This document shows positions 6,872 to 48,743 of a stretch of DNA of 64,000 bases, piece after piece (position 1 is the first letter of the stretch; every line of letters starts with the position of its first letter). Under the pieces are notes generated by a model. That model saw nothing but the letters and a program-made list of their open reading frames with translations, was not told the origin of the DNA and searched no databases. A program made the position numbers and the translations under genes. This stretch comes from Patescibacteria group bacterium (GTDB lineage Bacteria; Patescibacteriota; Patescibacteriia; JAXHNJ01), in assembly GCA_041649715.1 (NCBI GenBank), contig JBAZMP010000001.1, forward strand, positions 309,287 to 373,286, written 5' to 3'.

Positions 6872-7293
6872 GATTTTTTTCCTTTGTTAGACTATACTTA
6901 GGAGTCGACCTTTAATTTACTCCCAGGACAAAAACCAAATAATTTAGTTCCTATCAGGGGAGAATTAAAAGCGACTTAATCTAGATATAGAATAAGCGCC
7001 GGATTTTACCTCGCCAGCTTTTTCAAAGAGTTTTTAACAGCTACATACTAACGAATAATAATGTCTCTGTCAAGTAGGTTTATTATTTTAGCTAAAAAGC
7101 TTATAATAAATCCATGTCCAAATACTACAACTCTAAGCGCACCAAACATCTTTTTGACCCTACCTTTTTTAACGCTATTTGTTATAAGCACTAAATCCGA
7201 AATACGAAACTCTAAACAAATTCTAATTTCTCAAATCCGAAATTCGAAACTGAGGGTTTTAAAAGCCAAAGACGATAACGAAAAACAAGCGGT

Positions 7294-7409: not shown

Positions 7410-7525
7410 ATATCAGTACAGACAAAAAAGTAAGTAGGGGATAATCAAAAAAGACTGTCTACCCTTCGAGGCTCAAGCCTGTCCTGAGTGGCATCGAAGG
7501 ACACCTCAGAGTGACAGTTTTATTT
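7410..7525. repeat. Structured repeat family B, copy 1 (AGTAGGGGATAA..CTGTCTACCCTTCGAGGCT-[variable]-CACCTCAGAGTGACAGTTTTA)
   Basis: The conserved 5' and 3' arms can pair (CTGTCTACCC with GGGTGACAG) around a variable core. Copies lie at 10141..10215, 10560..10640, 10700..10795 and 12757..12790. Confidence 0.65.
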
Positions 7526-7695
7526 TGATTCTTTTTCACCAAAAAAACAAACAATCAACCAAGACATTTTTTATCCGCCCGCTAGCCTTAGCGTGTTTTT
7601 TGTATGAAGAAGTTTATCCACCTTGACTTAGAAAGGTATATATATTAGTGTTAAGTTAGTACTAATTCAGTAAATTAGCACAATCTACTAATTTT

Positions 7696-8283
7696 ATGAA
7701 ATGGCTAGATTTTGAGCGAAAAATTAAGAGTAAAAATATTAAGCTGTTCACGCCGCTTGATGTGCAGAGATTTTTAGGCCGGTCTAAAATAGCCGCCCGT
7801 TTTTTGATCCATCGCCTGAAAAAAAATGGCTATATTGTGAGCCTCAAACGCGGTTTGTATAAGCTGTCCGATGAACAAATTCCGGATCTGTATCTGGCCA
7901 ATAATATTTACGCCCCCTCGTATGTTTCCCTGGAATTCGCCCTTTCGTACCACGGAGTCATTCCCGAAACTGTCTATGAGATAACTTCGGTTACCACCAA
8001 GGCCACCCGCCGGTTTGAGGCGCTGGGAAAAGTTTTTTCTTACCACAAAATAAAAAAACCGGCTTTTACCGGCTATGTCATCCAAAAACAGGGCGGGTTG
8101 GGTTTTCACGTCGCCGAACCAGAAAAGGCTTTCGTGGATGCGAATTATTTTCGGCTCTTGGACGGCCGAAAACCGCTGTCCCGCTTCAACAAGGATAAAA
8201 TTGATTTAAAAAAGGCCTTGTTTTATGCCGCTCTTTTCGGCAATCAGAAACTTAACAATATAATTAAAACAACGCTTCAATGA
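7696..8283 (+). CDS. abiEi: Type IV toxin-antitoxin system antitoxin AbiEi (winged-HTH transcriptional regulator)
   Basis: 195 aa. The N-terminus MKWLDFERKIKSK...FTPLDVQRFLGRSKIAARFLIHRLKKNGYIVSLKRGLYKL is typical of AbiEi. The gene overlaps the downstream gene by 4 nt (ATGA). Confidence 0.75.
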   Translation: MKWLDFERKIKSKNIKLFTPLDVQRFLGRSKIAARFLIHRLKKNGYIVSLKRGLYKLSDEQIPDLYLANNIYAPSYVSLEFALSYHGVIPETVYEITSVTTKATRRFEALGKVFSYHKIKKPAFTGYVIQKQGGLGFHVAEPEKAFVDANYFRLLDGRKPLSRFNKDKIDLKKALFYAALFGNQKLNNIIKTTLQ

Positions 8284-9023
8284 TTTCCCAGGAATTAATA
8301 AAAAAAATAGCCAGTCAGAATAAAACAGCGGATTTTCCCAATATTGTCCGCGAGTATTTTCAGCACCTTTTTTTATCCGAGCTCTATAGATTATCCGGCG
8401 CCGAGAATTTGCTTTTTAAGGGCGGGACCGCTTTGCGCATTATCTACGGCAGTCCGCGCTTTTCCGAGGATTTGGATTTTACCCTGATCGGCGTTGAAGG
8501 TTACCGGAAAAAGGAATTCGCGGAAAGCCTGTTTCTCAGCGTTTTGACCGAGATTGAAAAAATCGGCATTAAGGTGGAGATAAACCGGAAGTCGGATGAG
8601 ACCCGCGAGGGTTATTTTGGCGATGCGAACTATCAGGTTTATGATTATCCCGAAACGTCCGTGAGTATAAATATATCCTCAAGAGAGGGAAAAGATATTA
8701 AGGGCGAGATTGATTCCATCGCCAATGATTTCATACCGACTTATAATATTCTGCATCTGTCAAAAAATGTGTTGGTGGAAGAAAAAATAACGGCCGCGAT
8801 CACTCGGGCGAAACCCAGAGATTTTTACGATGTCTATTTTATCCTTAGAAAAAATTTGCTGGCGACAGAAAATAAAAAAATACTCCCTGACATCCTTGAT
8901 AAATTGAATAACACTGATATTAATTTTACCCAGGAATTAGGCATTTTCTTGCCGAAGGATCAGCAGCAAATAGTGAAAGATTTCAAGAATATTTTAACTT
9001 CTGAAATAAAGCGTTATATTTAG
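8280..9023 (+). CDS. abiEii: Type IV toxin-antitoxin system toxin AbiEii (DUF1814 nucleotidyltransferase)
   Basis: 247 aa. It has the nucleotidyltransferase motif LFKGGTALRIIYGSPRFSEDLDFTL (GS...DxD), and its size and operon partner are typical. Confidence 0.75.
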   Translation: MISQELIKKIASQNKTADFPNIVREYFQHLFLSELYRLSGAENLLFKGGTALRIIYGSPRFSEDLDFTLIGVEGYRKKEFAESLFLSVLTEIEKIGIKVEINRKSDETREGYFGDANYQVYDYPETSVSINISSREGKDIKGEIDSIANDFIPTYNILHLSKNVLVEEKITAAITRAKPRDFYDVYFILRKNLLATENKKILPDILDKLNNTDINFTQELGIFLPKDQQQIVKDFKNILTSEIKRYI

Positions 9024-10059: not shown

Positions 10060-10830
10060 GCAGATAATATTATTGTCATACTGAGGAGCCATGAGATCCT
10101 GAGTCGCATCGAAGGACGAATGGCGTCTCGAAGTATGACCGTTTAGACACATAAAAGCCTGTCTATCCTTCGAGGCTCGCATTGCTCGCACCTCAGGGTG
10201 ACAGTTTTAGTTTTATTTGAAATTCGGTGCATCGGATTTAATCGTCAGGCGGCGAAGCGTTGACGAGCCGCCACTAAGAAAAAGTTAGCAGTAATTTAAG
10301 CTTTCAGCAGGCTGGGGTCTCTGCCTACGGCAGACAGGTGGGGGCTTCATCGCCTTAAATATTTTACAGCGTTTTTTGCTATTAAAAATAACGAAAATTT
10401 AATGGGCGAGGGGGTCCGGGGGAAAAACTGAAAGCGAATGGGCTACGCGGTAAAACCAACCCCCTGTGCTCGCGGTTTTTTTCCCCCGGGGCTTTTGGTT
10501 CTTTTGGCCTCAAAAGAACAAGACAATCAGCCTTGCCCCCTAAAATAAAAATTTTCTAAAGGTAAAAACTCACCCTTCGAGGCTCCCATTCGACGCGGCT
10601 CATGCTCGCACCTCAGGGTGACAGTTTTATTATTTTGGTTTTTGGAGTCTGCCCTGAGTGGCAACGAAGGGGTTACAAAAGTTGAAATACTTCGGCACAG
10701 ACTAAAGATTGAGTAAGGGATAAACAGAAGAAACCGTCTACCCTTCGAGGCTTAGGCGTTGCCTTCGCACCTCAGGGTGACAATTTTAGTTTGCATTTAT
10801 CAACTTTATAAGATTAAAATAAAAGACCCT
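10060..10830. repeat. Non-coding island densely packed with structured repeat modules (families A and B, a TTAGCAG..GCTTTCAGCA module and an AGCCTTGCCCCC..AAAATAAAA module)
   Basis: Family A copy at 10409..10530. Family B arms at 10158..10215, 10571..10640 and 10735..10795. A CTGCCCTGAGTGGCAACGAAGGGGTTACAAAAGTTGAAA module at 10644..10690. No credible ORF. Confidence 0.7.
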
Positions 10831-11637: not shown

Positions 11638-12531
11638 ATGCAAAAAAAATCCTGGCTTAGCCTCATTTATTTTCTGGTTTTTGGCTTATTAATAATTTTT
11701 ACTTTCTTATTCAAAAGCCGTTCTCTGCTGTATGTAGTAATTCCCATTTTTTTTGGTTTTATCGTGGTTTTGAGTTTGATAAATGTTGGAGGCAAGATGT
11801 TTTCTTTTTCCAAAGGTTTGATGACCATGAGTAAAACCGGGCCGGTTTTTACCTCTAAGGTCTGGTCTTGGCGGGAAGGGGAAACGATTGATTTCGCCGA
11901 TATTTTTCCGGGGTTGAAGGACGTGACCTCATTTTTCAGTGAAATGCCACTGCCGAAAATAAAACCGGAGAGAGTGGCGATTGGAGAAAAAGAGGGGGTG
12001 AATTATAATATTTACCGGCTTAATTTCACGAATATCGTAAAAGTTCCGGCCAGCCGCAAACCGGGCTTCCGGCCGCTGATAATCCACGGGGTTAAAGCGC
12101 CGGGAATGAGCGGGGGCTTGAATTCAAGTGTGAGCCAGAGCTTTAATATTTTGCAGGCCAGATTGACTTTTCCTGGATCTTTCCCCGGCCGTTTGATTAT
12201 CCAAAGAGTTGCCGGGCCGACCTTGGGCCGTGATATTGATCTGGAAAGCGTGGAATTTAACAAAAAAGTTCAGGTCTATACCAATCAGGCCAAAATCGCT
12301 TACCAGATTTTATCCCCGGATTTTATGGACTGGTATTTGAAACTGCCTGATCAGCCGGTTATCGCTTTTGACCAACAGATATGTTATTACACCCTGATCG
12401 GATTCAGTAATAAGGGTGAGGAAGAGATTACCGCCGATATTGAACAATTGATTGACCGCGTCCTGCATTCAGGGGCTTTAACCTTATCCCAAATCCCAAA
12501 TCCTAAATCCAAAACAAATCCCAATATCTAA
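11638..12531 (+). CDS. Hypothetical membrane protein (two N-terminal TM helices plus a globular domain)
   Basis: 297 aa. TM helices are LSLIYFLVFGLLIIFTFLF and VVIPIFFGFIVVLSLINV. The last roughly 12 codons (PNPKSKTNPNI) are encoded by an AAATCC-type repeat. Confidence 0.55.
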   Translation: MQKKSWLSLIYFLVFGLLIIFTFLFKSRSLLYVVIPIFFGFIVVLSLINVGGKMFSFSKGLMTMSKTGPVFTSKVWSWREGETIDFADIFPGLKDVTSFFSEMPLPKIKPERVAIGEKEGVNYNIYRLNFTNIVKVPASRKPGFRPLIIHGVKAPGMSGGLNSSVSQSFNILQARLTFPGSFPGRLIIQRVAGPTLGRDIDLESVEFNKKVQVYTNQAKIAYQILSPDFMDWYLKLPDQPVIAFDQQICYYTLIGFSNKGEEEITADIEQLIDRVLHSGALTLSQIPNPKSKTNPNI

Positions 12532-13175
12532 ATCTGAAATTCGAAACACGGCGGCGTCGTCTCATTTTATGGTGAACAAAAGTAATCAGAAAGCGTGGGG
12601 GCTCCGGGGGTTTTCCTCAGTCCGCAGGGGTTTTAGCGTCTATTTACGCAAATCTTGAACGAATTAAAACCCCCGGGGCTCTTTGGTACTTTCTGGCCCC
12701 AGAAAGTACAAGCAAACAGCCTTGCCCCCAAAAATAAAATTTTCAAAAAAGTAAAACTAACCCTTCGACGCGGCTCAGGGTGACAAGAGGAGAAAGGCGG
12801 CGAAACCAGGGGCGAGCCGCCTAGTGAATAAAAATTAGCAGATACTTTATGCTTTCAGCAAAACAGGGGTCCGGGGGGAATGCTCGACTTTGCGGCTTTT
12901 AGCATTTATATGAGTTTTAAGGGGGCAATCATTCCCCCCGGAACTTTTGCTACTGGAGCCTGCCCTGAGTGGCACCGAAGGGGTTACAAAAGTTGAAAGA
13001 TAGCATCTAAAAAAACAGCTAAAGTAAAACAAAATAATAAACCAAAAAATTACTCTCGCCCGTCTTACGCATAGGTCGATCTTTTTGGCTAATTTAAGCA
13101 GAAATAACAAAAAGACGTTAATTTTGACTAAATCGGCTAAAATCGCTATAATAAAGTTAAATACAGGAGGGGAAA
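12532..13175. repeat. Non-coding island of structured repeat modules (family A copies 3 and 4, a family B fragment, and others)
   Basis: GGGGGCTCCGGGGGTTTTCC...AAAACCCCCGGGGCTC at 12596..12680. GGGGTCCGGGGGGAATG...CATTCCCCCCGGAAC at 12866..12955. CTGCCCTGAGTGGCACCGAAGGGGTTACAAAAGTTGAAA at 12958..13000. Confidence 0.7.
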
Positions 13176-14480: not shown

Positions 14481-14499
14481 TTGGTATTAATTTGTTATT

Positions 14500-14672
14500 T
14501 TTAAATCCTAAATTCTAAATCCGAAAATCTAAACAAATCTTAAATTCTAAATTCCAAATTCAAAACCGGTTTGGAACATTGGAAAATTAGGGCTTCGAAT
14601 TTGTTTCGGATTTAGGATTTCGCGCTTCGAATTTATCTGAATTTTGGTGCTTGTAATTTGGAATTTTGAAGA
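14500..14672. repeat. Long AT-rich palindromic hairpin of the AAATYC/GAATTT family (probable bidirectional terminator)
   Basis: AAATCCTAAATTCTAAATCCGAAAATCT...TTTCGGATTTAGGATTT. The two arms are near-perfect reverse complements across more than 60 nt. Confidence 0.65.
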
Positions 14673-17311: not shown

Positions 17312-17317
17312 AGAATA

Positions 17318-17368
17318 TGGACCGAATATTCACTTCGCAAACCTTAGACAAGGTAGACAAAAAATAAA
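17318..17368 (+). pseudogene. Remnant duplicate of the aspS 5' end (encodes MDRIFTSQTLDKVDKK then a stop)
   Basis: About 50 of 55 nt identical to 18660..18714, the true aspS start. Confidence 0.7.
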
Positions 17369-17376
17369 TAAAATTT

Positions 17377-18648
17377 ATGTTAAATCAAATTCAACAAAAT
17401 CAGCCTAACCAAAAGAAGCCGAAAAAAAGTCTCGCTCCAATATTAACTCTCGGTTTCATCGCCGCCCTTTTAATAGCGGCCATGTCTTTTGGGTACGTGA
17501 AATACATCAAGAATGGGAACGAGAATGCGAACAATTCAGTGGCCTGCACCATGGAGGCCAAGCTCTGTTCGGACGGCTCGGCCGTTGGCCGCGTGCCGCC
17601 TACTTGCGAGTTCGCGCCCTGCCCCAATGAAAATGGGAATTCAAATGTTAATTTAAATGCCAATGTCTCGGTCAATGCCAATGAAAATTTGAATACCAAC
17701 ACAGCGGTCAGCGAAGTAGAAAAATGGCAGAATTATCAACTGGAATACGATAAATTTGGCAAGCTCACTTCTTTTTCCTATAAGTATACCTATAATCAAC
17801 AGACAAAGATTGTTACTCCATTTGATATCGCATTATATCGCGGCTCGGTGACTCCTTATGGTGTTATTTTTTTTAAAGTCGGAGAAATGAGGCAAGCCAC
17901 GGGTACGAATATCGGAGAATTTAGCTATGAATACGGTATCAATCCGGATTTTCAATTGTTTAATTATCAGACCCAGTCTTTTAAATCATTGCCGGCTTTT
18001 TCTTTGAAACTGGCCGGAAGCCAATTTGAAAGAATTTACGCCCTGCATTTTTCCGCGACCGAACCAAAGATATTGGTTGAAATCGGAGAATACGATACCA
18101 GTAGCTCTCATTTCGAGCCGGGACTGGTAGAAAGCCAGCCGGTGAAGACCCACGGGGTGGTCTATGACGTCGTCACCAACCAGTATTTGACCGGCGACCC
18201 CTTGACGATCTATTTAGATCTGATCGGCCAAACCACGACATTGTGGAACGGTATGTCCTGGGATAGTCTGCACCAGATCGCGGTGGCGGCGCCGGGCGGG
18301 GAAGGATGTGGCGCTTATAATTCTTTGACAGTTGTCTACCTGGATCAAGAAAGAGCCGTGACCGTCGGCGGTGAAGGCAGTTTCAATTTTAAAAAAGAAA
18401 TATGCAACCCAAGTAACGGGGTAAGCCCTGATCGTAAATGGTTTGTTTTAGATGGATGCAATAACGAAAATAAATTCGACGTCAATCTCTTTAATTACGC
18501 CAGTTTTCCTGAGCCAATTCTAAAAAAACTCTCCATCTCGGTTTCGAATAATAATGTTTGTCATGTTTATGTGAAAGAATGGAATATCAGTCAGACCTAC
18601 CCGATCATTACTTTTAATGACGGCACGATTATTAATTTTAACGAATAA
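17377..18648 (+). CDS. Signal-anchored secreted protein of unknown function (Asn-rich linker)
   Basis: 423 aa. An N-terminal TM anchor is followed by NGNSNVNLNANVSVNANENLNTN and a large globular domain. The gene is flanked by the aspS-start direct repeats. Confidence 0.6.
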   Translation: MLNQIQQNQPNQKKPKKSLAPILTLGFIAALLIAAMSFGYVKYIKNGNENANNSVACTMEAKLCSDGSAVGRVPPTCEFAPCPNENGNSNVNLNANVSVNANENLNTNTAVSEVEKWQNYQLEYDKFGKLTSFSYKYTYNQQTKIVTPFDIALYRGSVTPYGVIFFKVGEMRQATGTNIGEFSYEYGINPDFQLFNYQTQSFKSLPAFSLKLAGSQFERIYALHFSATEPKILVEIGEYDTSSSHFEPGLVESQPVKTHGVVYDVVTNQYLTGDPLTIYLDLIGQTTTLWNGMSWDSLHQIAVAAPGGEGCGAYNSLTVVYLDQERAVTVGGEGSFNFKKEICNPSNGVSPDRKWFVLDGCNNENKFDVNLFNYASFPEPILKKLSISVSNNNVCHVYVKEWNISQTYPIITFNDGTIINFNE

Positions 18649-18659
18649 AATATAAAATA

Positions 18660-20039
18660 ATGGACCGCATTTTCACTTCGCAAACCTTAGACAAGGTCGA
18701 TAAAAAAATAAAGCTGGCCGGCTGGGTGCACCGGACGCGCCGGATGGGCTCGATCGTTTTTATTGACCTGCGCGACCGCGAAGGCCTGATCCAGGTGGTT
18801 TTTGACAAGCATTTTAAAGAAGCCCGGGAATTGCGGCCGGAATTTGTCATTGAGTTGGAGGGTAAAGTAGTCAAGCGCGAATTAAAAAATATCAATACGG
18901 ATTCGCCGACCGGCGAAATAGAGGTGCAGGCCACAAGCCTGAAAGTGCTGGCCAAAGCGAAGACTCCGCCTTTTGAAATTGAAAATGAAGAGCGGCAGGC
19001 CAGCGAGGAATTAAGGCTTAAATACCGCTATCTGGATCTGCGGCACGAAAGAATGAAAAAGAACCTGATCTTGCGCCACAAAGTGATCAAATTCATCCGC
19101 GACTGGCTTTCTACCTCCGGTTTTATGGAAATTGAAACGCCGCTTTTGACCAAGGGCACGCCGGAAGGGGCCAGAGAGTACATCGTCCCTTCCCGCAATT
19201 TTGCCGGCCAATTCTATGTCCTGCCGCAAAGCCCCCAGCAGTTCAAGCAATTGCTGATGGTGGCGGGCTTGGAAAAATATTTCCAGATCGCCAGATGCTT
19301 CCGCGATGAAGACGCCAGGGGAGACCGGCAGGCGGAATTTACCCAATTAGACTTGGAAATGTCCTTTGTCTCCCAGGAAGATATATTGAAGCTTTCCGAG
19401 GAATTGTTCATTCAGCTGGTCCAAAAAATCTGTCCGGAGAAAAAGATCGCCAAGATTCCTTTTCCGCGCTTAAGTTATGATGAGTCCATGAAAAAGTATA
19501 AAAGCGACAAGCCGGATCTGCGGAAGAATAAAAAAGACAATAACGAACTGGCTTTTGCCTGGGTTTTGAATCCTCCGCTTTTTGAAAAAAGCGTGACGGA
19601 AAAAAAGTGGGTTTCCACCCACCATCCTTTTACTATGCCGGTCGAGGATGATATTGAATTATTAGATAAAGAGCCAAAAAAAGTTAAAGCGCAATCCTAT
19701 GATATAGTTTTAAATGGTTTTGAAATCGGTACCGGGAGTGTCAGAATCCACGAGGCTTCCTTACAGTACAAAATATTCCAAATTTTGGGTCTGAACGAAA
19801 AAGAGATCCAGGAGCGCTTCGGCCATATGCTGGAGGCTTTTTCCTACGGCGTGCCGCCGCACGCGGGCATCGCCCCGGGTTTAGACAGGTTAGTCATGAT
19901 ATTGGCCGGCGAGCCGAATATCCGGGAAGTGATCGCTTTCCCCAAGACCGCCGATGCCCGAGATTTAATGATGGGAGCACCGTCGGAGTTACCTGAGAGT
20001 CAGGTTAAAGAGGCATATATTAAGAAACTGAAAAATTAA
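18660..20039 (+). CDS. aspS: Aspartate--tRNA ligase (short form lacking the bacterial GAD insertion)
   Basis: 459 aa. Motif 2 is FQIARCFRDEDARGDRQAEFTQLDLEMSF. The GSVRIHE motif is present. Motif 3 is PPHAGIAPGLDRLVMILAGEPNIREVIAFPKT. Confidence 0.85.
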   Translation: MDRIFTSQTLDKVDKKIKLAGWVHRTRRMGSIVFIDLRDREGLIQVVFDKHFKEARELRPEFVIELEGKVVKRELKNINTDSPTGEIEVQATSLKVLAKAKTPPFEIENEERQASEELRLKYRYLDLRHERMKKNLILRHKVIKFIRDWLSTSGFMEIETPLLTKGTPEGAREYIVPSRNFAGQFYVLPQSPQQFKQLLMVAGLEKYFQIARCFRDEDARGDRQAEFTQLDLEMSFVSQEDILKLSEELFIQLVQKICPEKKIAKIPFPRLSYDESMKKYKSDKPDLRKNKKDNNELAFAWVLNPPLFEKSVTEKKWVSTHHPFTMPVEDDIELLDKEPKKVKAQSYDIVLNGFEIGTGSVRIHEASLQYKIFQILGLNEKEIQERFGHMLEAFSYGVPPHAGIAPGLDRLVMILAGEPNIREVIAFPKTADARDLMMGAPSELPESQVKEAYIKKLKN

Positions 20040-29399: not shown

Positions 29400-30527
29400 A
29401 TGAAAATAGCGATTGTCACGCAAAGTTATTATCCGATCAAGGGAGGGGTGGCGGAGCATGTCCATGCTCTTTCCGGAGAGCTGGAAAAATTAGGGCATAA
29501 AGTCGTCATCATCACCGCCAATTTTACCGGTTTGGACGATAATTATGGACGTTGTGTCTATCGGATCGGCCGCGACTTGACGATTCCGATAAACGGCGCC
29601 TTCAACAACATGACGGTCGGTTTTTCCTTAAAAAAACAGTTGGAGGAAATTGAAAGCAAGGAAAAATTTGATCTTATCCATATCCATCAGCCGATTGACC
29701 CGATCCTGCCTTTAATGGCTTTGAAATATTTAAAAGCCCCCAAAGTCGGCACTTTCCATACCTACAGCGAGGGAAGCTATATTTTGGAGACTTTAAAGAA
29801 TCAGGCCAAGCCTTTTTTTGATCGTCTTTCCGGCTTGATCGCGGTCTCGTCTTCCGCGCGGGAATACATCACCCGGTATCTGCCCGGTGATTACCGGATA
29901 ATCCCCAACGGCGTGGACACCACCCGGTTTTCTCCCGAAGTGGAGCCCTTGGAAGGATATAAAAATAGCCGCGATTTCAAGATATTATTTGTGGGCAGAA
30001 TGGACCCCCGCAAGGGTTTTAAGTATTTGTTGAGGGCTTTCCCTCTGATCTATCAAAAGATCACCAATGTCCGCCTGATCGTGGTGGGCAATGGATTTTT
30101 GCGGACGTTTTACCATTTATCCCTGCCTTCCGTTCTGCGGCCCAGAGTGGATTACCGGGGTTTTGTTTCAAGGGCCGATCTGCCCCGGTATTATGCCTCC
30201 TGTGATGTTTACTGTTCGCCGGCCACCATGGGCGAAAGTTTCGGCATCGTTCTTTTGGAAGCGATGGCCTCGGGCAAGCCGGTCATCGCCTCGGATATCC
30301 GGGGTTATAATTCCATTCTGGAAGACGGCCGCCAGGGATATTTAGTGCCCAAAGAAAATCCCCTGGCTTTGGCGGAAAAAATCATTGATTTGGCCTGTGA
30401 CCAGAAAAAAAGAGAAATGATGGGGGCGGCTGGCCGGCAAAAAGCCCTGACCTTTGATTGGGGGAGGGTGGCGAAAGAGATTGAGGGACTATACCGGGAA
30501 GTTCTGGGGAAAAAGGGAAAGTCATAA
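29400..30527 (+). CDS. Family 4 glycosyltransferase (GT4)
   Basis: 375 aa. The N-terminus MKIAIVTQSYYPIKGGVAEHV..L.KLGH.V is typical, as is the C-terminal E(x7)E motif region ESFGIVLLEAMASGKPVIASD. Confidence 0.8.
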   Translation: MKIAIVTQSYYPIKGGVAEHVHALSGELEKLGHKVVIITANFTGLDDNYGRCVYRIGRDLTIPINGAFNNMTVGFSLKKQLEEIESKEKFDLIHIHQPIDPILPLMALKYLKAPKVGTFHTYSEGSYILETLKNQAKPFFDRLSGLIAVSSSAREYITRYLPGDYRIIPNGVDTTRFSPEVEPLEGYKNSRDFKILFVGRMDPRKGFKYLLRAFPLIYQKITNVRLIVVGNGFLRTFYHLSLPSVLRPRVDYRGFVSRADLPRYYASCDVYCSPATMGESFGIVLLEAMASGKPVIASDIRGYNSILEDGRQGYLVPKENPLALAEKIIDLACDQKKREMMGAAGRQKALTFDWGRVAKEIEGLYREVLGKKGKS

Positions 30528-30531
30528 AATT

Positions 30532-32424
30532 ATGGAGGAAGGGGTAAAAAATATAAAGAGAGCAAAAGGGGCTTTTCGTTTTTTTATCTTGGCCGGCCTA
30601 GTGATTGTTTTGCCGCTTTTTGTTTTTATTTTTATCAATCAGCCGCTAAAACCCACCCTGGTCGTGATCAAGGAGGAAAGCAGGTTGAAAGTTGATTCAC
30701 CGCTGGAGATCCAGTTTGACTGGCCGGTCGCCCGCCAAGTAAATATCACCATTGAACCGGCGGTAACGGGCGAGGTGGCTTATAAGAATATGATCATCGG
30801 CCAGCATTTTTCGCGGACCGTGGTTTTTACCCCGGAGCTTAACTTTTGGCCGGACACCACCTACCAAGTGAGGGTTTCAAATGTGAAATCCGTTTTGCCG
30901 AGCTTGTTGCCGGCCCGGGAATATGTCTATACTTTTACCACGGAAAGTGTGCCGAAAATCAAATCCCTGACCCCGGAAGTTGTTGGGGAAATAAGGGCAG
31001 ACCAAGAATTCAAAATAACCCTGGATAAAAAACCGGCCAACCTGGCAGAATACGAATATCGTTTTTTGCCGGCTGTTGATTATGACACTCTGTTAAGCGA
31101 AGAGGGAAAAACCGTCACTTTAAAGCCTAAAAGCTTGCTTTCCCAGGGCCAGACTTATCAGTTATCTGTTTGGCAGAAAAAAATCCGGAATTTTTATCAG
31201 AAAAATGAGGCGGGTTTCCGGGCCGAGCCGGAAAGTATTTGGACCGGCAATTTTGCCGTCCGGGAGGCTCCCTTTCTTTCGGGCTTTTCCCCGAAAGGAG
31301 AAAATGTCGGCTTAAACGCCGAGATCACCGCGGTTTTTAACGAGCCGGTGGAAACTGCTTCTTTCAAAGAGAGCCTTTCCATCACGCCGGCTTTATCAGG
31401 CGATTGGCGGACCGAAGATCAAAAAACCTTTGTTTTGAAAGAAGCGACACTCGCCAAAGACACCGACTATAAAGTTTTGATCCGCCGGGGCTTAAAGACT
31501 CTCAAGGGCGGATATTTCACCGAAGACGCCACGCATACTTTTAAAACGATCGGCCCGGTGGAAATCGCTCGTTTTTCTCCGGCTGATGGCGCCGCCGGCG
31601 TTTCCGTCAGTCATTCTTTTTCCGTCACTTTTAACCAGGCAGTGGATAAAACATCGGCCCAAAGTCATTTTTCCCTTGAGCCGGCGGCTGCCGGAGATTT
31701 TTTGTGGTCAGGGGAGACATTGACTTTTAAGCCAAAGGCTTCCTTAGCTTTTAATACGACCTATCATCTCACGATATCCAAGGGAGTGAAAAGCTTGTCG
31801 GGTTTTGATTCGGAAGAAGACTATAAAACAAACTTTACCACCGAGCTTTCCCTGACGAAATTGGCCGTTCCCTTCCACCGGCAGGAGCATAATTTAAGCT
31901 GCGAGACCGCCACCCTGGTCATGGCCTTGGCCTACCGAGGGGTGAGCGTTTCGGAGGCCGCGATTATAGATTATATCGGCTTTGACCCCACGCCGAAATC
32001 AGGGGGCGTCTGGGGTAATCCTAACGTCGCTTTTGTCGGCGACATTGACGGCCACCAGCCTTCGACCGGCTACGGAGTCTATTGGGATCCGATCACCAGA
32101 GCCGCCGATCAATACCGGAGCGCTTATGATTTTACCGGCTGGAATATCTCCGATTTGACCGCGGAGATCAAGAAAGGCAATCCGGTGATCGTCTGGGGCA
32201 CGGCCGGTTCCGGAGCCAGGATTGACTGGAAGACGCCCGCCGGCGGCAACGTGGTGGCCGTCAGCGGCGAGCACACCCGGGTGGTTGTCGGTTTTATCGG
32301 TTCGGCCGAAAATCCGAGCAAAATCATTACTTTAGACCCGCTTTCCGGGGAAAAGTATTTTACCTTGAGCAGTTTTCTTTGGAACTGGGGGCTTTTGGGC
32401 CGAAGCGGCGTGGTGGTCGAATAG
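30532..32424 (+). CDS. Membrane-anchored multidomain protein with a C-terminal YvpB/C39-like cysteine peptidase domain
   Basis: 630 aa. An N-terminal TM helix is followed by repeated beta-sandwich-like segments. The C-terminal domain LAVPFHRQEHNLSCETATLVMALAYRGVSVSE ... GEHTRVVVGF matches the Peptidase_C39_2 (YvpB) pattern VP...Q....CE..S..M. Confidence 0.6.
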   Translation: MEEGVKNIKRAKGAFRFFILAGLVIVLPLFVFIFINQPLKPTLVVIKEESRLKVDSPLEIQFDWPVARQVNITIEPAVTGEVAYKNMIIGQHFSRTVVFTPELNFWPDTTYQVRVSNVKSVLPSLLPAREYVYTFTTESVPKIKSLTPEVVGEIRADQEFKITLDKKPANLAEYEYRFLPAVDYDTLLSEEGKTVTLKPKSLLSQGQTYQLSVWQKKIRNFYQKNEAGFRAEPESIWTGNFAVREAPFLSGFSPKGENVGLNAEITAVFNEPVETASFKESLSITPALSGDWRTEDQKTFVLKEATLAKDTDYKVLIRRGLKTLKGGYFTEDATHTFKTIGPVEIARFSPADGAAGVSVSHSFSVTFNQAVDKTSAQSHFSLEPAAAGDFLWSGETLTFKPKASLAFNTTYHLTISKGVKSLSGFDSEEDYKTNFTTELSLTKLAVPFHRQEHNLSCETATLVMALAYRGVSVSEAAIIDYIGFDPTPKSGGVWGNPNVAFVGDIDGHQPSTGYGVYWDPITRAADQYRSAYDFTGWNISDLTAEIKKGNPVIVWGTAGSGARIDWKTPAGGNVVAVSGEHTRVVVGFIGSAENPSKIITLDPLSGEKYFTLSSFLWNWGLLGRSGVVVE

Positions 32425-33426: not shown

Positions 33427-34230
33427 ATGAAGAAGAAAATAATAATATTGTTATTAATCCTAACACTCGCCTGTCTTTTTTATTTCGGCCGGCACCAGAT
33501 CGCGGAATTATGGGAGAATTTCGTGGCCGAACCCCTGCCAGAACCGACTCCTCTGGAAAATATCAATACAAGGATAAATCAAAATACTAACGCAGCGGTC
33601 AATCAGAATCAAAATATTAACTTGTCGGTGAATAATAACCTTAACGCCGCGCCGCCCGTTTTACCGTCTGAATTCAATCTAGTCGTGCCTTTTACCACTC
33701 AGTCGCCGTTTGCGGAATGGACCGAGCAGGATAACGAATCCTGCGAAGAAGCGGCGATTTTGACCGTCCATTATTACTGGCAAAAAAAGACTTTTACCAA
33801 ACAAATTGCCAAAGAGGAGCTGCAAAAGATTGTGGATTATGAAATGGCGCATCTGGGTTTTTACAAAGATACGGATGCGGAAGAAACGGCCCAGTTGGCC
33901 AAGGATATGTGGGGCTACAAGCGCGTGGACGTGGTTTGGGATCCGACGCTTGAGGATATAAAACAGCAGGTCTATGCCGGCCGACCGGTGATCTTGCCGA
34001 CCGCGGGAAGAGAGTTAAAAAACCCGAATTTCAAAACGCCGGGGCCCATATACCACATGGTGGTGGTGCGCGGCTGGACCAAGGGTATGATCATTACCAA
34101 TGATCCGGGCACGCGCAAAGGTGAAAATTACCAATATTCCCCTGATATTTTAATGAATGCGGTGCATGACTGGAACGACGGGGATATAATGAATGGAAAA
34201 AAGGCGATGATTGTGATTTATCCGAATTAA
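33427..34230 (+). CDS. Signal-anchored YvpB/C39-like peptidase-domain protein
   Basis: 267 aa. A TM anchor and Asn-rich linker are followed by LVVPFTTQSPFAEWTEQDNESCEEAAILTVHYYWQ ... YHMVVVRGW, which matches the Cys and His regions. Confidence 0.55.
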   Translation: MKKKIIILLLILTLACLFYFGRHQIAELWENFVAEPLPEPTPLENINTRINQNTNAAVNQNQNINLSVNNNLNAAPPVLPSEFNLVVPFTTQSPFAEWTEQDNESCEEAAILTVHYYWQKKTFTKQIAKEELQKIVDYEMAHLGFYKDTDAEETAQLAKDMWGYKRVDVVWDPTLEDIKQQVYAGRPVILPTAGRELKNPNFKTPGPIYHMVVVRGWTKGMIITNDPGTRKGENYQYSPDILMNAVHDWNDGDIMNGKKAMIVIYPN

Positions 34231-34248
34231 TCTTTAATATCCTCAATT

Positions 34249-34701
34249 ATGCCGGAGAAAGAAAGAGATTTCTTAGTCCGTAAGCCGATTAGAGTGAGTA
34301 TCATTATGAATGTTGATGTAAGTGATTGGGCCCTTAAAGACAAGCTGCCCGAAGGCTATATATGCGGTGGTGGCGTATTTAGTTTTCCCGCCGGGTATCG
34401 GGAATCCTACATTGTCAATGGAAAAGAATATAATTGTGAGGGTAATTTGAGCTTAGAGGAGCAAAGGGCTGATATTACACATGACCTGACGGAAGGAGGC
34501 TTTTCTCTTCAGGAAGCGGAAGAGTATATGGTCAATCTTAAGACCGTAGAATGGTCAGTCAGCTATTTGAATTACGATGCTTCGCAAAAGTGGCTGGAAC
34601 TACATCCGGAATTTGAAGATGAAGCCATGAAAATCTTAAAAGAAGCTATCAATGAGCTTAAAGCGGAAGGAAATGAACAAGGGAGACGGGTCAGAAGGTG
34701 A
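34249..34701 (+). CDS. Hypothetical acidic protein
   Basis: 150-aa ORF with no motif recognised. It is flanked by an imperfect direct repeat of about 26 bp. Confidence 0.45.
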   Translation: MPEKERDFLVRKPIRVSIIMNVDVSDWALKDKLPEGYICGGGVFSFPAGYRESYIVNGKEYNCEGNLSLEEQRADITHDLTEGGFSLQEAEEYMVNLKTVEWSVSYLNYDASQKWLELHPEFEDEAMKILKEAINELKAEGNEQGRRVRR

Positions 34702-34724
34702 TGCTTGTGATTTATCCGAACGAT

Positions 34725-34862
34725 TGAAATAAATTCCAATATCCAAATTCAAAACACGCCCCAGAGGCGTTTTTTTGTATTAAAAAAATGGATCGTTAGA
34801 GTTTTGGATTTCGAATTTGGAATTTGGGTATTGTTTGGAACTTGGAATTTGTGATTTGGTAT
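34725..34862. repeat. AAATYC-family palindromic hairpin with a nested canonical terminator (ACGCCCCAGAGGCGTTTTTTT)
   Basis: ATTCCAATATCCAAATTCAAAAC ... GTTTTGGATTTCGAATTTGGAATTTGG. The inner GC hairpin plus T-tract lies at 34752..34776. Confidence 0.6.
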
Positions 34863-35002
34863 TTAGCGGCTAAATAGCGGCACAGTCAAGAATAGGGGAT
34901 AACCTTCCCTTTAAAATTTGACTCTCAAAAAGGGCGATGATATAATGTGGATAAGTATGTAATTGCATACTTTTCATACTTAATAAAATCAAGCAAAAAA
35001 CC

Positions 35003-35356
35003 ATGAAAAAAATCGCTTTAATCGCCACAATGGCTATCGCTTGCGTCTTGCCTCTTGCCGTTTTGGCCCAAACGCCGCTTTCTATTGAGAATGTCGGCAG
35101 TACCCTGGGTCTTGGCACGGCTGATCTCAAGGCCAGCGTTTTAAACATCCTCCAGTGGGTCCTGGGTCTGCTTGGCTTAATCGCGGTGATTATGATCATT
35201 ATCGGCGGCATAACACTGCTGGTGCCGACGAGCGCCGAAGCGGGAGAGAAAGCGAAAAAGATAATTACGGGGGCGGTCATCGGTTTGGTCGTTATCTTGC
35301 TCGCCTGGGCCATTATTATCTTTGTCATCAACACGACCACTAACGTGACGGTTTAA
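35003..35356 (+). CDS. Small secreted 2-TM protein: a candidate TrbC/VirB2-like pilin, or a hydrophobic bacteriocin-like peptide
   Basis: 117 aa. Signal peptide MKKIALIATMAIACVLPLAVLAQT, then two long hydrophobic helices separated by the basic loop PTSAEAGEKAKKIITG. The overlapping minus-strand ORF was rejected. Confidence 0.45.
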   Translation: MKKIALIATMAIACVLPLAVLAQTPLSIENVGSTLGLGTADLKASVLNILQWVLGLLGLIAVIMIIIGGITLLVPTSAEAGEKAKKIITGAVIGLVVILLAWAIIIFVINTTTNVTV

Positions 35357-37671: not shown

Positions 37672-37845
37672 CAAACTAAATTCTAAATCCGAAATCCTAA
37701 ATTCTAAACAAATCATAATATCTAAATCACAAATTCGAAACCCCATTAGAAATTCTATTTTTAAATAGGAAACCGGTTTGGGACATTGGAAAATTATTGC
37801 TTCGAATTTGTTTAGGATTTAGAAATTGAGATTTGGAATTTTATC
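37672..37845. repeat. AAATYC-family long palindromic hairpin
   Basis: AAATTCTAAATCCGAAATCCTAAATTCTAAACAAATC ... GATTTGTTTAGGATTTAGAAATT. The arms are complementary. Confidence 0.65.
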
Positions 37846-45743: not shown

Positions 45744-46037
45744 ATGAACGGAGAATCACAACAAAAAGTTAACATCAAGGCCAATGATGAGACCATGATA
45801 GGCGCTTACGCCAATAACATGATGGTGGCGCATTCCAAAGAGGAATTTGTTATGGATTTTATTCATCTTTTTCCGCCCCAAGGGTTGCTCGTTTCCCGAG
45901 TTATTACATCTCCTGGTCACATGAAACGGATTATCTCTGCCTTACAGGACAATTTAAAGAAGTACGAAGAAAAATTCGGAAAGGTTGAGCAGGCCGAAGC
46001 GCCTAAACAAGAAGGAGTAGGGTTTGAAACAAGGTAA
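45744..46037 (+). CDS. DUF3467 family protein, copy 1
   Basis: 97 aa. YANNMMVAHSKEEFVMDFIHLFPPQGLLVSRVITSPGHMKR fits the DUF3467 pattern. It is about 85 percent identical to 48453..48743. Confidence 0.65.
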   Translation: MNGESQQKVNIKANDETMIGAYANNMMVAHSKEEFVMDFIHLFPPQGLLVSRVITSPGHMKRIISALQDNLKKYEEKFGKVEQAEAPKQEGVGFETR

Positions 46038-46258
46038 ATCTAATGTTTACCCCCGGCGAAATCGCGGACGGGCTACGCCTAGCCGTCATTCCGAACTTGG
46101 TTCGGAATCTCCCACTAGAATACGCGTAATTAATAACGGAGATCCTGAAACGAGTTCAGGATGACGGGTGGGGGAATAGGCGGAAAAATTTATTTGAAAA
46201 ATAAAAGAAGCCCAAACTCCGTTGAGTCGGGCTTCACCGTAAGTTCGAAATGATCTTT

Positions 46259-46651
46259 CTACTTCCTAATCCGAGTGTCGCTACTATAAGATTGAATACC
46301 GTAGATGGGATCGCGGAGATTCGTTTTCAGTTCGATTCTGCAATCCCAGCCGGGGAAACTCTTACGGTGGTGCGAAATGACGGCTTTTGCCTCTTGAAAG
46401 GCTCTGCGCCAGAATGGCCGCATGATTTTCTTGTCAGCTTCCGGCGTGGGTTTCCAGTTGTACTCGTGCTCAGGGCTGGTTATTTTTGCCGGCACCAGGT
46501 CATTTTTTTTCAGACCGGGGAAATCCACCTTGATCTTGCCGTAGACACTAATCGCGCCCACTCTCACTAGGCGATCATCAGCCAAATGAGGCGGGGTTAA
46601 GGTGTAAGCGACTTCTATTTCAACTTTCTGCGCACTAACCGTAATGTCCAT
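46259..46651 (-). CDS. Hypothetical protein
   Basis: 130-aa ORF on the minus strand, convergent with DUF3467 copy 1. No motif recognised. Confidence 0.45.
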   Translation of the reverse strand: MDITVSAQKVEIEVAYTLTPPHLADDRLVRVGAISVYGKIKVDFPGLKKNDLVPAKITSPEHEYNWKPTPEADKKIMRPFWRRAFQEAKAVISHHRKSFPGWDCRIELKTNLRDPIYGIQSYSSDTRIRK

Positions 46652-46749
46652 AGTCAGACCCCCAAAGGTTAAGTTTTCACGTTTTCTCCAATTCAGTTTT
46701 TCAACTTAACATATTAATATTATACTGTCAAGCCTAAAAAGCCGGCCAA

Positions 46750-47178
46750 ATGGCGGAAAAATATATGAAACACGTCAAAGCAATTATCATAGAGAACAAT
46801 AAAATTCTTTTGCTGAAAAGAAACAGAGAAGGCCGGATTTATTGGGTTTTTCCCGGCGGACAGGTGGAAAGTGGAGAGACGGATGAGCAGGCTTTGAAGA
46901 GGGAAGTCAAAGAAGAGGTTGGAGTAGACGTTTCCGTCGGGAAGCTGATTTTTCAGACGAAATATAAATTGCCAAAAAAAGAGACTAAAGAAGATGAATA
47001 TTTTTATCTTTGCCGCTACATCGGCGGTGAAATCGGTACAGGCCAGGGGCCGGAATATCAGCCCAATTCCGGCTATGTCGGCACTTATGAACCGCAGTGG
47101 GTGGCAATAAAAGACTTAAGGAAAATGAAAGTATTACCGGAAGAAGTGAAAAATCTGGTGCCGGAAAAATTTCTTTGA
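46750..47178 (+). CDS. NUDIX hydrolase
   Basis: 142 aa. The Nudix box is GGQVESGETDEQALKREVKEEVGV. Confidence 0.85.
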   Translation: MAEKYMKHVKAIIIENNKILLLKRNREGRIYWVFPGGQVESGETDEQALKREVKEEVGVDVSVGKLIFQTKYKLPKKETKEDEYFYLCRYIGGEIGTGQGPEYQPNSGYVGTYEPQWVAIKDLRKMKVLPEEVKNLVPEKFL

Positions 47179-47188
47179 AAATAAAAAA

Positions 47189-47208
47189 GGGCTGTCGAAT
47201 GACAGCCC
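47189..47208. terminator. Bidirectional terminator hairpin
   Basis: GGGCTGTCGAATGACAGCCC lies between convergent genes. Confidence 0.55.
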
Positions 47209-47250
47209 GTGGTTTCTCAAAATTTCGAGGTAAAATGTACTCTGCTATTC

Positions 47251-47466
47251 CTAGCTCTCGAGTTTAGCGCGGAGATTCAGTAGTTTCCCGCGGACTCCCA
47301 GAAGTTTTTCTTCTTTCTTTTTAACCTCGTCATAATGATCAGCGAGAGAAACGGGGAGATGCCGAGCTCTGTTCAACCCATCCTCGGCCCCTGCGAGCTC
47401 TTTTTGGGCTCGGTCTTGCTCAAGCATGATGTCAATCAAGGCTTTGACCGCTTCCATGGCCTTCAT
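47251..47466 (-). CDS. Hypothetical small coiled-coil protein
   Basis: 71 aa. The Shine-Dalgarno sequence GAGGAGG sits 6 nt upstream on the minus strand. Confidence 0.5.
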   Translation of the reverse strand: MKAMEAVKALIDIMLEQDRAQKELAGAEDGLNRARHLPVSLADHYDEVKKKEEKLLGVRGKLLNLRAKLES

Positions 47467-47653
47467 TCTAAGCCTCCTCTCAAGGTTTATTGTTTTTGTC
47501 CCGTCTGCTAGTTATAAAAGGACAGATGATTAGTCTATATCTTATTAGAGGAAATTATCTTTGTCAAGTTTATAAATGAGGCGGAAAAATTTCTTTGAAA
47601 AATAAAAAGGAAGCGACGTGGGTCGCTTCCGAAAATGTGCTCTTGTTGAATTT

Positions 47654-47920
47654 TCAGCTCATGATCCGGTACTTGGAACCGTCCGGCCGAACGATGTAAA
47701 TGCGGTCCTGGATACCCATTGAAGATTGTCCGCCGGAGGTGGCGGACGGTTGGGTTTTCTCCAACCCGGCGAGCTGCTTTTTAGCGGCGGCAATGGCCTT
47801 TTTCTCCGTCGGGTAGGAACCCGGAATCGGATAATCCTCATTTGAGAAAGTATCGTACCCCTCCAGATGCCATCTTCCTGCTTCCGACTTTTTCTTCGCC
47901 GCAGGACGTTTCTTTTCCAC
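47654..47920 (-). CDS. Hypothetical small basic protein
   Basis: 88 aa. A GTG start sits 7 nt after AAAGGAGGT, and the terminator hairpin GGAAGCGACGTGGGTCGCTTCC lies downstream. Confidence 0.5.
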   Translation of the reverse strand: MEKKRPAAKKKSEAGRWHLEGYDTFSNEDYPIPGSYPTEKKAIAAAKKQLAGLEKTQPSATSGGQSSMGIQDRIYIVRPDGSKYRIMS

Positions 47921-48030
47921 TAAGGACCTCCTTTGTTTAACGAGAAAAGTACCAGACGGATTGATTAAAACAAGTTAGCATTAATGTTTTTTATTGTCAA
48001 GCCCTCTTTTTCCGGCGCGGATGGGCGAAT

Positions 48031-48060
48031 AAAAAAAGAGCGGCTTTAAAAAAGCCGCTC
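48031..48060 (-). terminator. Intrinsic terminator for the 48080..48337 gene
   Basis: GAGCGGCTTTaaaaaAAGCCGCTC, with a T-tract on the minus strand. Confidence 0.6.
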
Positions 48061-48079
48061 GGCAATGAACAATATTGTT

Positions 48080-48337
48080 TTAATGAAAGATACGGCACTC
48101 TCCTTGGTTGAAATCATCAAAGGGTTTGTCGCTGAAGTCTATTATCCCTCTGGCACTCCATTTTACGCGGATTGAATCACGTTGTGAAGGATTGGTCAGA
48201 TTGACGATGACGATTCCGCCGGCCTCCTGGTCTAGGCGGCCGATCACCAGATAAACGATAGAGGGTTTTTCCGGGATCTTGACTTCAATCTTCTCGCCAC
48301 CGTTAAGAGCAAAAAATTCCCGGCTGCTTAAGCTCAT
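48080..48337 (-). CDS. Hypothetical small protein
   Basis: 85-aa ORF. GGAGG sits upstream on the minus strand (AAAGGAGGAATCAACC ATG) and a terminator lies downstream. Confidence 0.5.
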   Translation of the reverse strand: MSLSSREFFALNGGEKIEVKIPEKPSIVYLVIGRLDQEAGGIVIVNLTNPSQRDSIRVKWSARGIIDFSDKPFDDFNQGECRIFH

Positions 48338-48452
48338 GGTTGATTCCTCCTTTTAAACATTTTCTCAAAACAACATCCCGATAATTCCAGTATTAGTCCG
48401 GATTCATTATTTTGTCAAGTCATTTATATTAATTAACTAAGTATTTAAACCT

Positions 48453-48743
48453 ATGAACGGACAGCAACAACAAGTAAACATCAAGGCCAGTGACGAGGTC
48501 ATAAAAGGCGTTTACGCCAACAATATGATGGTGGCACATTCAAAGGAGGAATTTGTTATGGATTTCATTCATCTTTTCCCGCCTCAAGGATTATTGGTTT
48601 CTCGCGTCATTACTTCTCCCGGTCACATGAAAAGAATCCTGGCTGCTCTGGCCGATAACCTGAAAAAGTACGAGGAAAAATTCGGCAAGATTGAAACGGC
48701 CGAAGCGCCTAAGCAAGAAGGCATTGGTTTCGCGACCAAATAA
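48453..48743 (+). CDS. DUF3467 family protein, copy 2
   Basis: 96 aa. It is a paralog of 45744..46037. Confidence 0.65.
   Translation: MNGQQQQVNIKASDEVIKGVYANNMMVAHSKEEFVMDFIHLFPPQGLLVSRVITSPGHMKRILAALADNLKKYEEKFGKIETAEAPKQEGIGFATK

Follow-up and report, generated by a model that had tools for sequence, protein, structure and literature searches.

In the 64,000-nucleotide stretch of DNA from a Patescibacteria group bacterium analysed here (contig JBAZMP010000001.1, positions 309,287 to 373,286; hereafter the window), a small gene (34249..34701, + strand) lies directly behind the gene for a C39-like peptidase (33427..34230, + strand) and runs into a second copy of that gene's 3' end. Comparison with related genomes shows what reads as a gene-sized insertion of ~0.45-0.5 kb, essentially one complete open reading frame (ORF), between the stop codon of the peptidase gene and its terminator. 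By the same comparison the end of the peptidase gene is an insertion hot spot, since sister genomes carry either unrelated single genes or a single terminus at this position.

The duplicated sequence comprises the last nine codons of the peptidase gene. Copy 1, the working end (34201..34227, + strand; AAGGCGATGATTGTGATTTATCCGAAT, then a TAA stop), and copy 2, which encodes the fossil terminus KVMLVIYPN (34695..34721, + strand; AAGGTGATGCTTGTGATTTATCCGAAC), are identical at 24 of 27 positions, with a perfect run of 16 nucleotides (nt), TTGTGATTTATCCGAA, and the mismatches C/T, A/C and T/C. A reading made earlier from the letters of this DNA (the sequence-only reading) had described an imperfect 26-nt repeat of the peptidase 3' end around the small gene; that repeat is confirmed, with a length of 27 nt. 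Copy 2 covers the last 7 nt of the small ORF, whose TGA stop lies at 34699-34701, and is followed by GAT TGA (34722..34727, + strand), an in-frame Asp codon and stop, PND-stop being a natural ending of the family. In the -1 frame relative to the small ORF, copy 2 thus reads KVMLVIYPND-stop. With an 8-nt gap allowed the likeness extends further (34224-34242 versus 34726-34744, 74%), and the duplicated stretch may be 42-50 nt long, the inserted piece being little more than the ORF.

A chance origin of the repeat is excluded. The sequence-only reading had proposed a permutation check on coincidence; none of 20,000 shuffles (simulated from a first-order Markov model of the 2 kb downstream) attained 24/27, most giving 14-17 with a maximum of 23, and the analytic expectation of such a match is ~2e-8. 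For every one of the 108 window ORFs of at least 90 amino acids (aa), the final 27 coding bases were matched against the 2 kb behind that ORF; the best match was 14-18, or 20 in one case, and the peptidase gene alone exceeded 20/27, with 24. In native sequence 24/27 or better is reached within 2 kb by 0.3% of random 27-mers, owing to real repeats in the genome, and the sequence derives from a metagenome-assembled genome (MAG). Both points speak for chance similarity or an assembly chimera, which we nevertheless consider exceedingly improbable, given the simulations and three further observations. An independent Logan assembly (SRR8542065, here L112) is identical across 6.8 kb, and the arrangement is therefore not the artefact of one assembler. 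The same architecture occurs with other inserts in two other samples, and the longest exact identity between the copies, 16 nt, is below the usual assembly k-mers.

We next consider the occupancy of the site in relatives. The close clade comprises six genomes, the window's own and those designated L001 (GCA_043812155), L002, L003, L004 and L024, with 78-84% nucleotide identity in the peptidase gene. The L024 contig ends ahead of the site, and occupancy was scored in L001-L004. The relatives compared show the same synteny, namely genes for GT4, Big5-C39, CorA and C39 proteins followed by pilin, MazE-like and ABC genes. L001 has one terminus and no gene at the site, which is a non-coding stretch with a repeat element; L002 likewise has one terminus and no gene, the terminus being followed by a spacer and a terminator. 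The best downstream matches to the terminal 27-mer in these two genomes are 15-16/27. L003 carries a gene for a 112-aa membrane protein and then a second terminus (24/27, or 30/35 when extended; AMIVIYPND-stop), and L004 a gene for a 130-aa membrane protein and then a 16/19 copy (IVIHPN-stop). The three inserted proteins are mutually unrelated. All three fossils keep the C39 frame and reach a stop within 0-1 codons (PND-stop, PND-stop and PN-stop in the window, L003 and L004), and across these three cases, which are all there are, the right boundary of the duplication is constant, just after CC(G/C)AAY. Among ~90 homologous loci the background best match was 13-18/27, with one A-rich low-complexity match of 19/27 (L020), and only the window and L003 reached 24. 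The more distant peptidase loci (identity of at most 74%) had no duplication, and their downstream synteny is not conserved. As a separate observation, L004 (151-2871) is without corA, the gene that separates the Big_5-C39 and C39 peptidase genes in the window, L001, L002 and L003.

From these alignments, copy 2 together with its Asp-stop, spacer and terminator is shown to be a former end of the peptidase gene, displaced downstream, because KVMLVIYPND-stop runs directly into the spacer and terminator that the gene has behind it in relatives. The native A/T-rich spacer and intrinsic terminator occupy 34728..34777 (+ strand), with a hairpin at 34756-34770 plus a T-run and the terminator proper at 34756-34777. 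They resemble the sequence behind the single terminus of L002, and 19 nt are identical to the matching region of L004. The TAA stop codon and 18-nt spacer that stand ahead of the inserted ORF (34228..34248, + strand) bear a weak likeness to this native spacer. The peptidase ORF itself is complete. Its 267-aa, membrane-anchored product is a predicted member of the Peptidase_C39_2 family (Pfam PF13529; 37.5 bits against a cut-off of 24, residues 88-227), and its C-terminus, ..KAMIVIYPN-stop, matches homologue endings. There are 845 homologues, the nearest being 79-85% identical and found in Patescibacteria MAGs, and the C-termini (hundreds in Patescibacteria) follow K[AV]M[IL]V[IV][YW]PN plus 0-2 residues. 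The spacer also includes one of several arrays of A/T-rich ~8-nt units (AAATYCNAAATYC...), which lie in the window at 7186-7250, 12484-12547, 14489-14566, 34728-34755 and 37678-37741. The context was read for the array at 34728-34755, which stands between stop codon and terminator hairpin; the motif AAATYCNAAATYC also occurs behind the peptidase gene in L002, L003 and L004.

The differences between working and fossil copies were evaluated by pooling four repeat pairs, those of the window, L003, L004 and a second site at aspS described below, which gave 14 differing positions. Synonymous or stop-to-stop changes make up ten of these 14, and of the four replacements three (A/V, I/L and E/D) are conservative. 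The A/V and E/D variants occur in close homologues, and Leu at the I/L position only in more distant ones. If a non-coding fossil decayed at random, 20-25% of the differences should be synonymous (p 4e-5 to 4e-4); allowing in addition for synonymous changes of the working copy raises the expected share to 33-40% (p 0.003-0.02). The identity between copies is 0.889, as against a mean of 0.884 for the same segment between clade genomes. Given that the differences are mostly synonymous and the identity is at the level of orthologues, it seems that until recently both copies evolved as coding sequence. They behave like the termini of two lineages joined together, unlike a decayed in-situ duplication or the remnant of an old paralogue.

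These data also bear on the description of copy 2 as a frame-shifted fossil of a paralogous 3' end, which the sequence-only reading had offered. The fossil part stands: copy 2 has the C39 terminus K[AV]M[IL]VIYPN[D/E], an in-frame stop and the native spacer and terminator. The term frame-shifted is correct for its phase relative to the inserted ORF and for nothing beyond that phase. The paralogous part was not supported. A tandem-paralogue remnant would mean that a second, downstream peptidase gene has been deleted except for its last 27 nt; copy 2 does encode a plausible peptidase C-terminus with a stop, and a second C39-domain gene is nearby (30454-32424). That gene, the sole other one with a C39 domain in the window, has a different end (...GVVVE-stop) with no similarity to the repeat. 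There is no likeness upstream of copy 2, where the C39 frame is full of stops, and the interval holds a complete gene of another family, with different genes again in L003 and L004. No relative has a tandem peptidase copy; in the synteny check the relatives showed a single terminus or the same duplication around other genes. The divergence of the copies, finally, is about that of orthologous termini in sister genomes and mostly synonymous or conservative. We therefore hold a paralogue remnant to be very unlikely, and an allelic or orthologous terminus, displaced when the insertion took place, is the better description of copy 2.

These observations allow us to propose how the insert arrived, and we find it somewhat more probable than otherwise that it came by a single crossover of incoming DNA at a short stretch resembling the terminus. 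This DNA, in the simplest case a small circle, would carry a segment of ~20-50 bp matching the peptidase terminus, and a single crossover within this segment would integrate it. The crossover could be made by a site-specific recombinase acting in trans, in the manner of an att site, or by RecA on near-minimal homology. The outcome would be two hybrid termini of different lineage origin, which would account for the hot spot and for copy differences that are mainly synonymous or conservative and at the level of orthologues. Recombination between the copies could later delete the insert and leave a single terminus, as in L001 and L002.

Several points weigh against a single crossover. Neither the insert and its immediate surroundings nor the ~45 window ORFs scanned yielded an integrase, a transposase or any other recombinase. 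Cassettes were not seen as circles or plasmids, and neither the small gene nor a meaningful match to the site turned up in viral contigs. On its left side the duplication starts ~12, 11 and 5 nt before the GTGAT core in the three genomes, which is looser than a classic att core. The test for synonymous bias rests on 14 differences, and the close clade consists of only six genomes in the databases searched. The third positions of the terminal 27 nt are only mildly more conserved than those of the rest of the gene, at rank 14-16 of 182 windows, and at that rank an extra nucleotide constraint on the 27-mer as a DNA-level recombination site is not supported. Two further candidates were tried. A degenerate 21-mer of the site matched one phage lineage, and a phage or plasmid attP was rejected because this match, inside a tape-measure gene, is due to chance. 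Mosaic breakpoints within the peptidase gene were sought by sliding-window identity, which shows no clear switch of nearest neighbour, the relatives all being ~80% identical.

A true long target-site duplication would produce a similar arrangement. Here staggered breaks ~27-50 nt apart would take up a linear, ORF-sized fragment and be filled in, giving copies that are identical at birth. This would suit an insert without a mobility gene, a repeat that is single in the empty L001 and L002, and a repeat length that varies (27-50, 35 and ~19 nt at the peptidase site and 48 nt at aspS), and a published class of such events has 46-bp duplications over a gene 3' end, mostly in naturally competent species (PMC2853133). 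From copies identical at birth random decay is expected, yet the differences are biased towards synonymous and stop-to-stop changes (10/14; p 0.003-0.02) and all three fossils keep frame and stop. Three insertions at one site among five relatives would moreover need a hot spot, which this model does not supply, and we judge it rather unlikely.

The lineage-like character of the two termini would also follow from homology-facilitated illegitimate recombination during natural transformation. A relative's linear fragment carrying the peptidase gene and the small gene would undergo homologous exchange inside the peptidase gene, and its far end would be joined at the microhomology AAGGTGA, 27 nt before the resident stop. 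Exactly at the junction, the end of the small ORF (..AGA AGG TGA) and the resident AAG GTG ATG share 7 nt, and in L003 a spacer of native type follows the left copy and another terminator the right one, as though the loci of two lineages had been spliced. This sequence of events is nonetheless unlikely in our estimation, since the flank upstream of the pilin gene (90-94% identical) permits ordinary double-crossover replacement without duplication, a genome in which the small gene follows the peptidase gene without a fossil did not turn up, and three independent illegitimate joins within ~8 nt are improbable.

The inserted gene encodes a 150-aa soluble alpha/beta protein that is full length at both ends compared with its family, its stop codon lying inside copy 2. 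The protein had no match in Pfam, PHROGs, PADLOC or NCBIfam. A word-index search returned almost no relatives, and an exhaustive HMMER search with the protein returned 26 representative relatives (130-180 aa long, lowest E 9e-35), which share the conserved motifs LPEG, FPAG..ESY.VNGK.YN and WL..HPE and have basic C-terminal tails. AlphaFold2 gave a confident alpha/beta model (predicted local distance difference test score 93.5), for which no convincing structural relative and no PDB or BFVD match was found. ORF 34249-34701 is a real gene of a small protein family of the type found in the candidate phyla radiation (CPR), with a function that is not assignable from matches. A -1 frameshift fusion of the small ORF to the fossil was rejected, as inspection found no in-phase slippery heptamer.

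The promoter scan found no promoter-like site ahead of the small gene, which is therefore most likely co-transcribed with the peptidase gene, the transcript probably ending at the old terminator. The predicted terminator at 34756-34777 would thus now close a transcription unit of both genes. Elsewhere, relatives of the small gene occur in housekeeping contexts (TruB-X-RNase Y, ABC ATPase-X and X-UppS, where X is the relative), and no flanking duplications were found at those in L006 and L104-L107. Viral contigs contained no relative. Given that relatives stand in other contexts without flanking repeats, the target site and not the cargo defines the event, and mobility specific to the cargo was rejected.

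The peptidase gene does not provide the only example. That the small gene is the second in the window to sit between duplicated gene termini, as the sequence-only reading had it, was borne out by the 5' end of aspS. The intact aspartate-tRNA ligase gene (18660..20039, + strand; NCBIfam NF001750, 658 bits) begins with the second copy of a 48-nt repeat (18660-18707), and a fossil 5' end of aspS lies upstream (17317..17364, + strand; MDRIFTSQTLDKVDKK, then TAA), identical at 44 of 48 positions. All four differences are synonymous third positions. Between the two 5' ends is an insert (17365-18659) with a membrane-anchored ORF of 423 aa (17377..18648, + strand). This is the same design as at the peptidase site, here at a 5' end, and again the resident gene stays whole. 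Single-ORF insertion with a duplicated terminus is therefore not unique to the peptidase gene.

The window contains further repeats and islands, which we record here. A 29-mer, AGGCGGAAAAATTT(A/C)TTTGAAAAATAAAA, has three copies (46178-46206, 47159-47187 and 47579-47607), each next to a hairpin of its own and serving as the T-rich tail of a terminator on the minus strand. The one in the middle (47159-47187) overlaps the stop of an unannotated plus-strand gene of 142 aa (46750-47178). The copies delimit small genes in an island (46040-48450) that lies between two small paralogues of 79% identity (45744-46037 and 48453-48743). A promoter-like region is duplicated at 36-87 and 1086-1150, with a core of 37/39 and weaker likeness to ~65 nt, and flanks a gene with a Bro-N domain (119-973); directly after the repeat at 1086-1150 comes a fused methylase gene of restriction-modification type (1214-3586; N6_Mtase, Eco57I, HSDR_N_2). 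A family of GC-rich intergenic repeats occurs at 7446-7530, 10097-10217, 10574-10793 and 12670-12998 of the window and at 5806-5847 of L001, the last being an inverted copy, 93% over 42 nt, of the element at window 12670-12711 and occupying the gene-free site behind the peptidase gene of L001. Members share blocks such as CACCTCAGGGTGACAGTTTTA and CCCCCGGGGCT.., and the family had no Rfam match. Among the repeat-rich intergenic regions towards the beginning of the window lies, within 7696-9023, a gene for an AbiEii-type nucleotidyltransferase toxin (8280-9023), and an overlapping ORF of 195 aa ahead of it could be a candidate antitoxin.

Around the peptidase gene, the window has the order GT4 glycosyltransferase, Big_5-C39 protein, CorA, C39 peptidase, small gene, type IV secretion system (T4SS)-pilin-like, MazE-like and ABC transporter. 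The right-hand flank of the variable site is a conserved non-coding region (34831..34983, + strand), 90-94% identical to L001 and L003. This ~150-nt region is clearly better conserved than the adjacent coding genes (~82%), and it may be a conserved leader or a candidate regulatory RNA; it had no Rfam match, and Rfam and tRNA scans of the locus as a whole also gave none. The downstream neighbour is the T4SS-pilin-like gene (35003..35356, + strand; Pfam PF18895), with synteny in L001 and L003. Upstream of it the promoter scan placed a promoter-like site (34918-34946), sigma-70-like at 11/12 with an extended -10 element.

To our knowledge, little is known of gene gain in the tiny genomes of uncultured CPR bacteria. 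The comparison of filled and empty sites reveals that one complete gene has been added behind a conserved one, where a scar marks the point of entry and, roughly, its manner, and the synonymous-biased differences in the scar suggest that DNA of related lineages recombined through very short homology. Taken alone, the single locus is a tidy and unsurprising insertion with terminus duplication. Within the window, the capture of ORFs may possibly be a pattern, seen at the 3' end of the C39 peptidase gene and the 5' end of aspS and perhaps also at the repeats beginning at 36/1086 and 46178/47159/47579. Whether Patescibacteria in general capture single ORFs at gene termini without an element-encoded recombinase, duplicating 25-50 bp of the gene end, is a wider proposition, and one that we regard as doubtful. 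If true, the resident gene would stay intact and drive the newcomer, the outcome would be integron-like with resident coding ends as attachment sites, and these genomes, which are reduced and probably naturally competent, would have in terminus-duplicating cassettes a separate way of gaining genes. If frequent, such scars could serve to count and date the acquisition of genes by CPR bacteria and to seek the responsible enzyme.

A literature search for CPR cassette systems returned no relevant report, and we compared the locus with systems known from elsewhere. Transposons, insertion sequences and miniature inverted-repeat transposable elements were rejected, given that no terminal inverted repeats were found at the insert ends and that the duplication is at least 19-27 nt as against 2-15 bp. 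A diversity-generating retroelement was likewise rejected: the repeat is 27 nt, whereas template and variable repeats are at least ~100 bp, the mismatches are not adenine-specific and there is no reverse transcriptase, a pilin-like gene being what follows. Integron cassettes resemble the insert in being promoterless single-ORF units at a fixed site behind a resident promoter and in differing by strain. They are unlike it in that the locus has no attC-type imperfect inverted repeat, GTTRRRY core, IntI or array, and that its boundary is formed by the coding terminus of a resident gene. On inspection both copies lacked GTTRRRY, and, the terminator aside, the RNA fold of 34680-34790 did not surpass that of shuffled sequence (z -0.28). 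With no attC, and with CorA, C39 peptidase, pilin-like, MazE-like and ABC transporter genes but no IntI as neighbours, an integron was rejected.

The orphan 3' modules of cdiA-CT/cdiI and rhs loci offer another likeness, as there too a former 3' end lies behind a newly acquired gene, displaced by incoming DNA from relatives. Here, in contrast, only nine codons are duplicated, there is no toxin domain and the peptidase domain is unchanged. Nor are the inserts matched immunity genes, because three unrelated proteins follow peptidases that are ~80-85% identical.

Closer to the locus is a kind of insertion in which the gene unit has no mobility genes. Nobusato et al. (2000) reportedly described such gene-unit 'insertion with long target duplication'. 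Furuta et al. (2010) described the same for gene units without mobility genes and set a duplication of >30 bp as the threshold that excludes att cores (PMC2853133). Descriptively, the locus fits this class, with a unit lacking mobility genes between duplications of a sequence present once in the empty genome, a duplication that overlaps the 3' end of a neighbour and a duplication length that varies. In the published cases the cargo consists of restriction-modification genes and the duplication of >30 bp is nearly identical; the cargo here is a small gene, and the ungapped repeat is 27 bp with 89% identity and differences that look selected and not neutral. Set against the 30-bp threshold, the repeats measure 27 nt ungapped (42-50 gapped) in the window, 35 in L003, 19 in L004 and 48 at aspS. 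The locus is a well-documented CPR instance of an already known kind of terminus-duplicating insertion.

By analogy, the locus would work most like the duplication of att sites by integrative elements that target a gene end, such as phages, integrative and conjugative elements and genomic islands at the ends of tRNA, tmRNA and protein genes. It is unlike them in its insert, one ORF of 150 aa (~0.45 kb) without an integrase, none being found nearby among the ~45 window ORFs, in a repeat whose extent varies between events, and in that no free element was found. It is like them in that direct repeats of the target terminus flank the insert while the target stays intact, in that one copy is a non-functional leftover although both are of coding type, in a cargo that differs by strain, and in an empty site with a single copy, as seen in L001 and L002.

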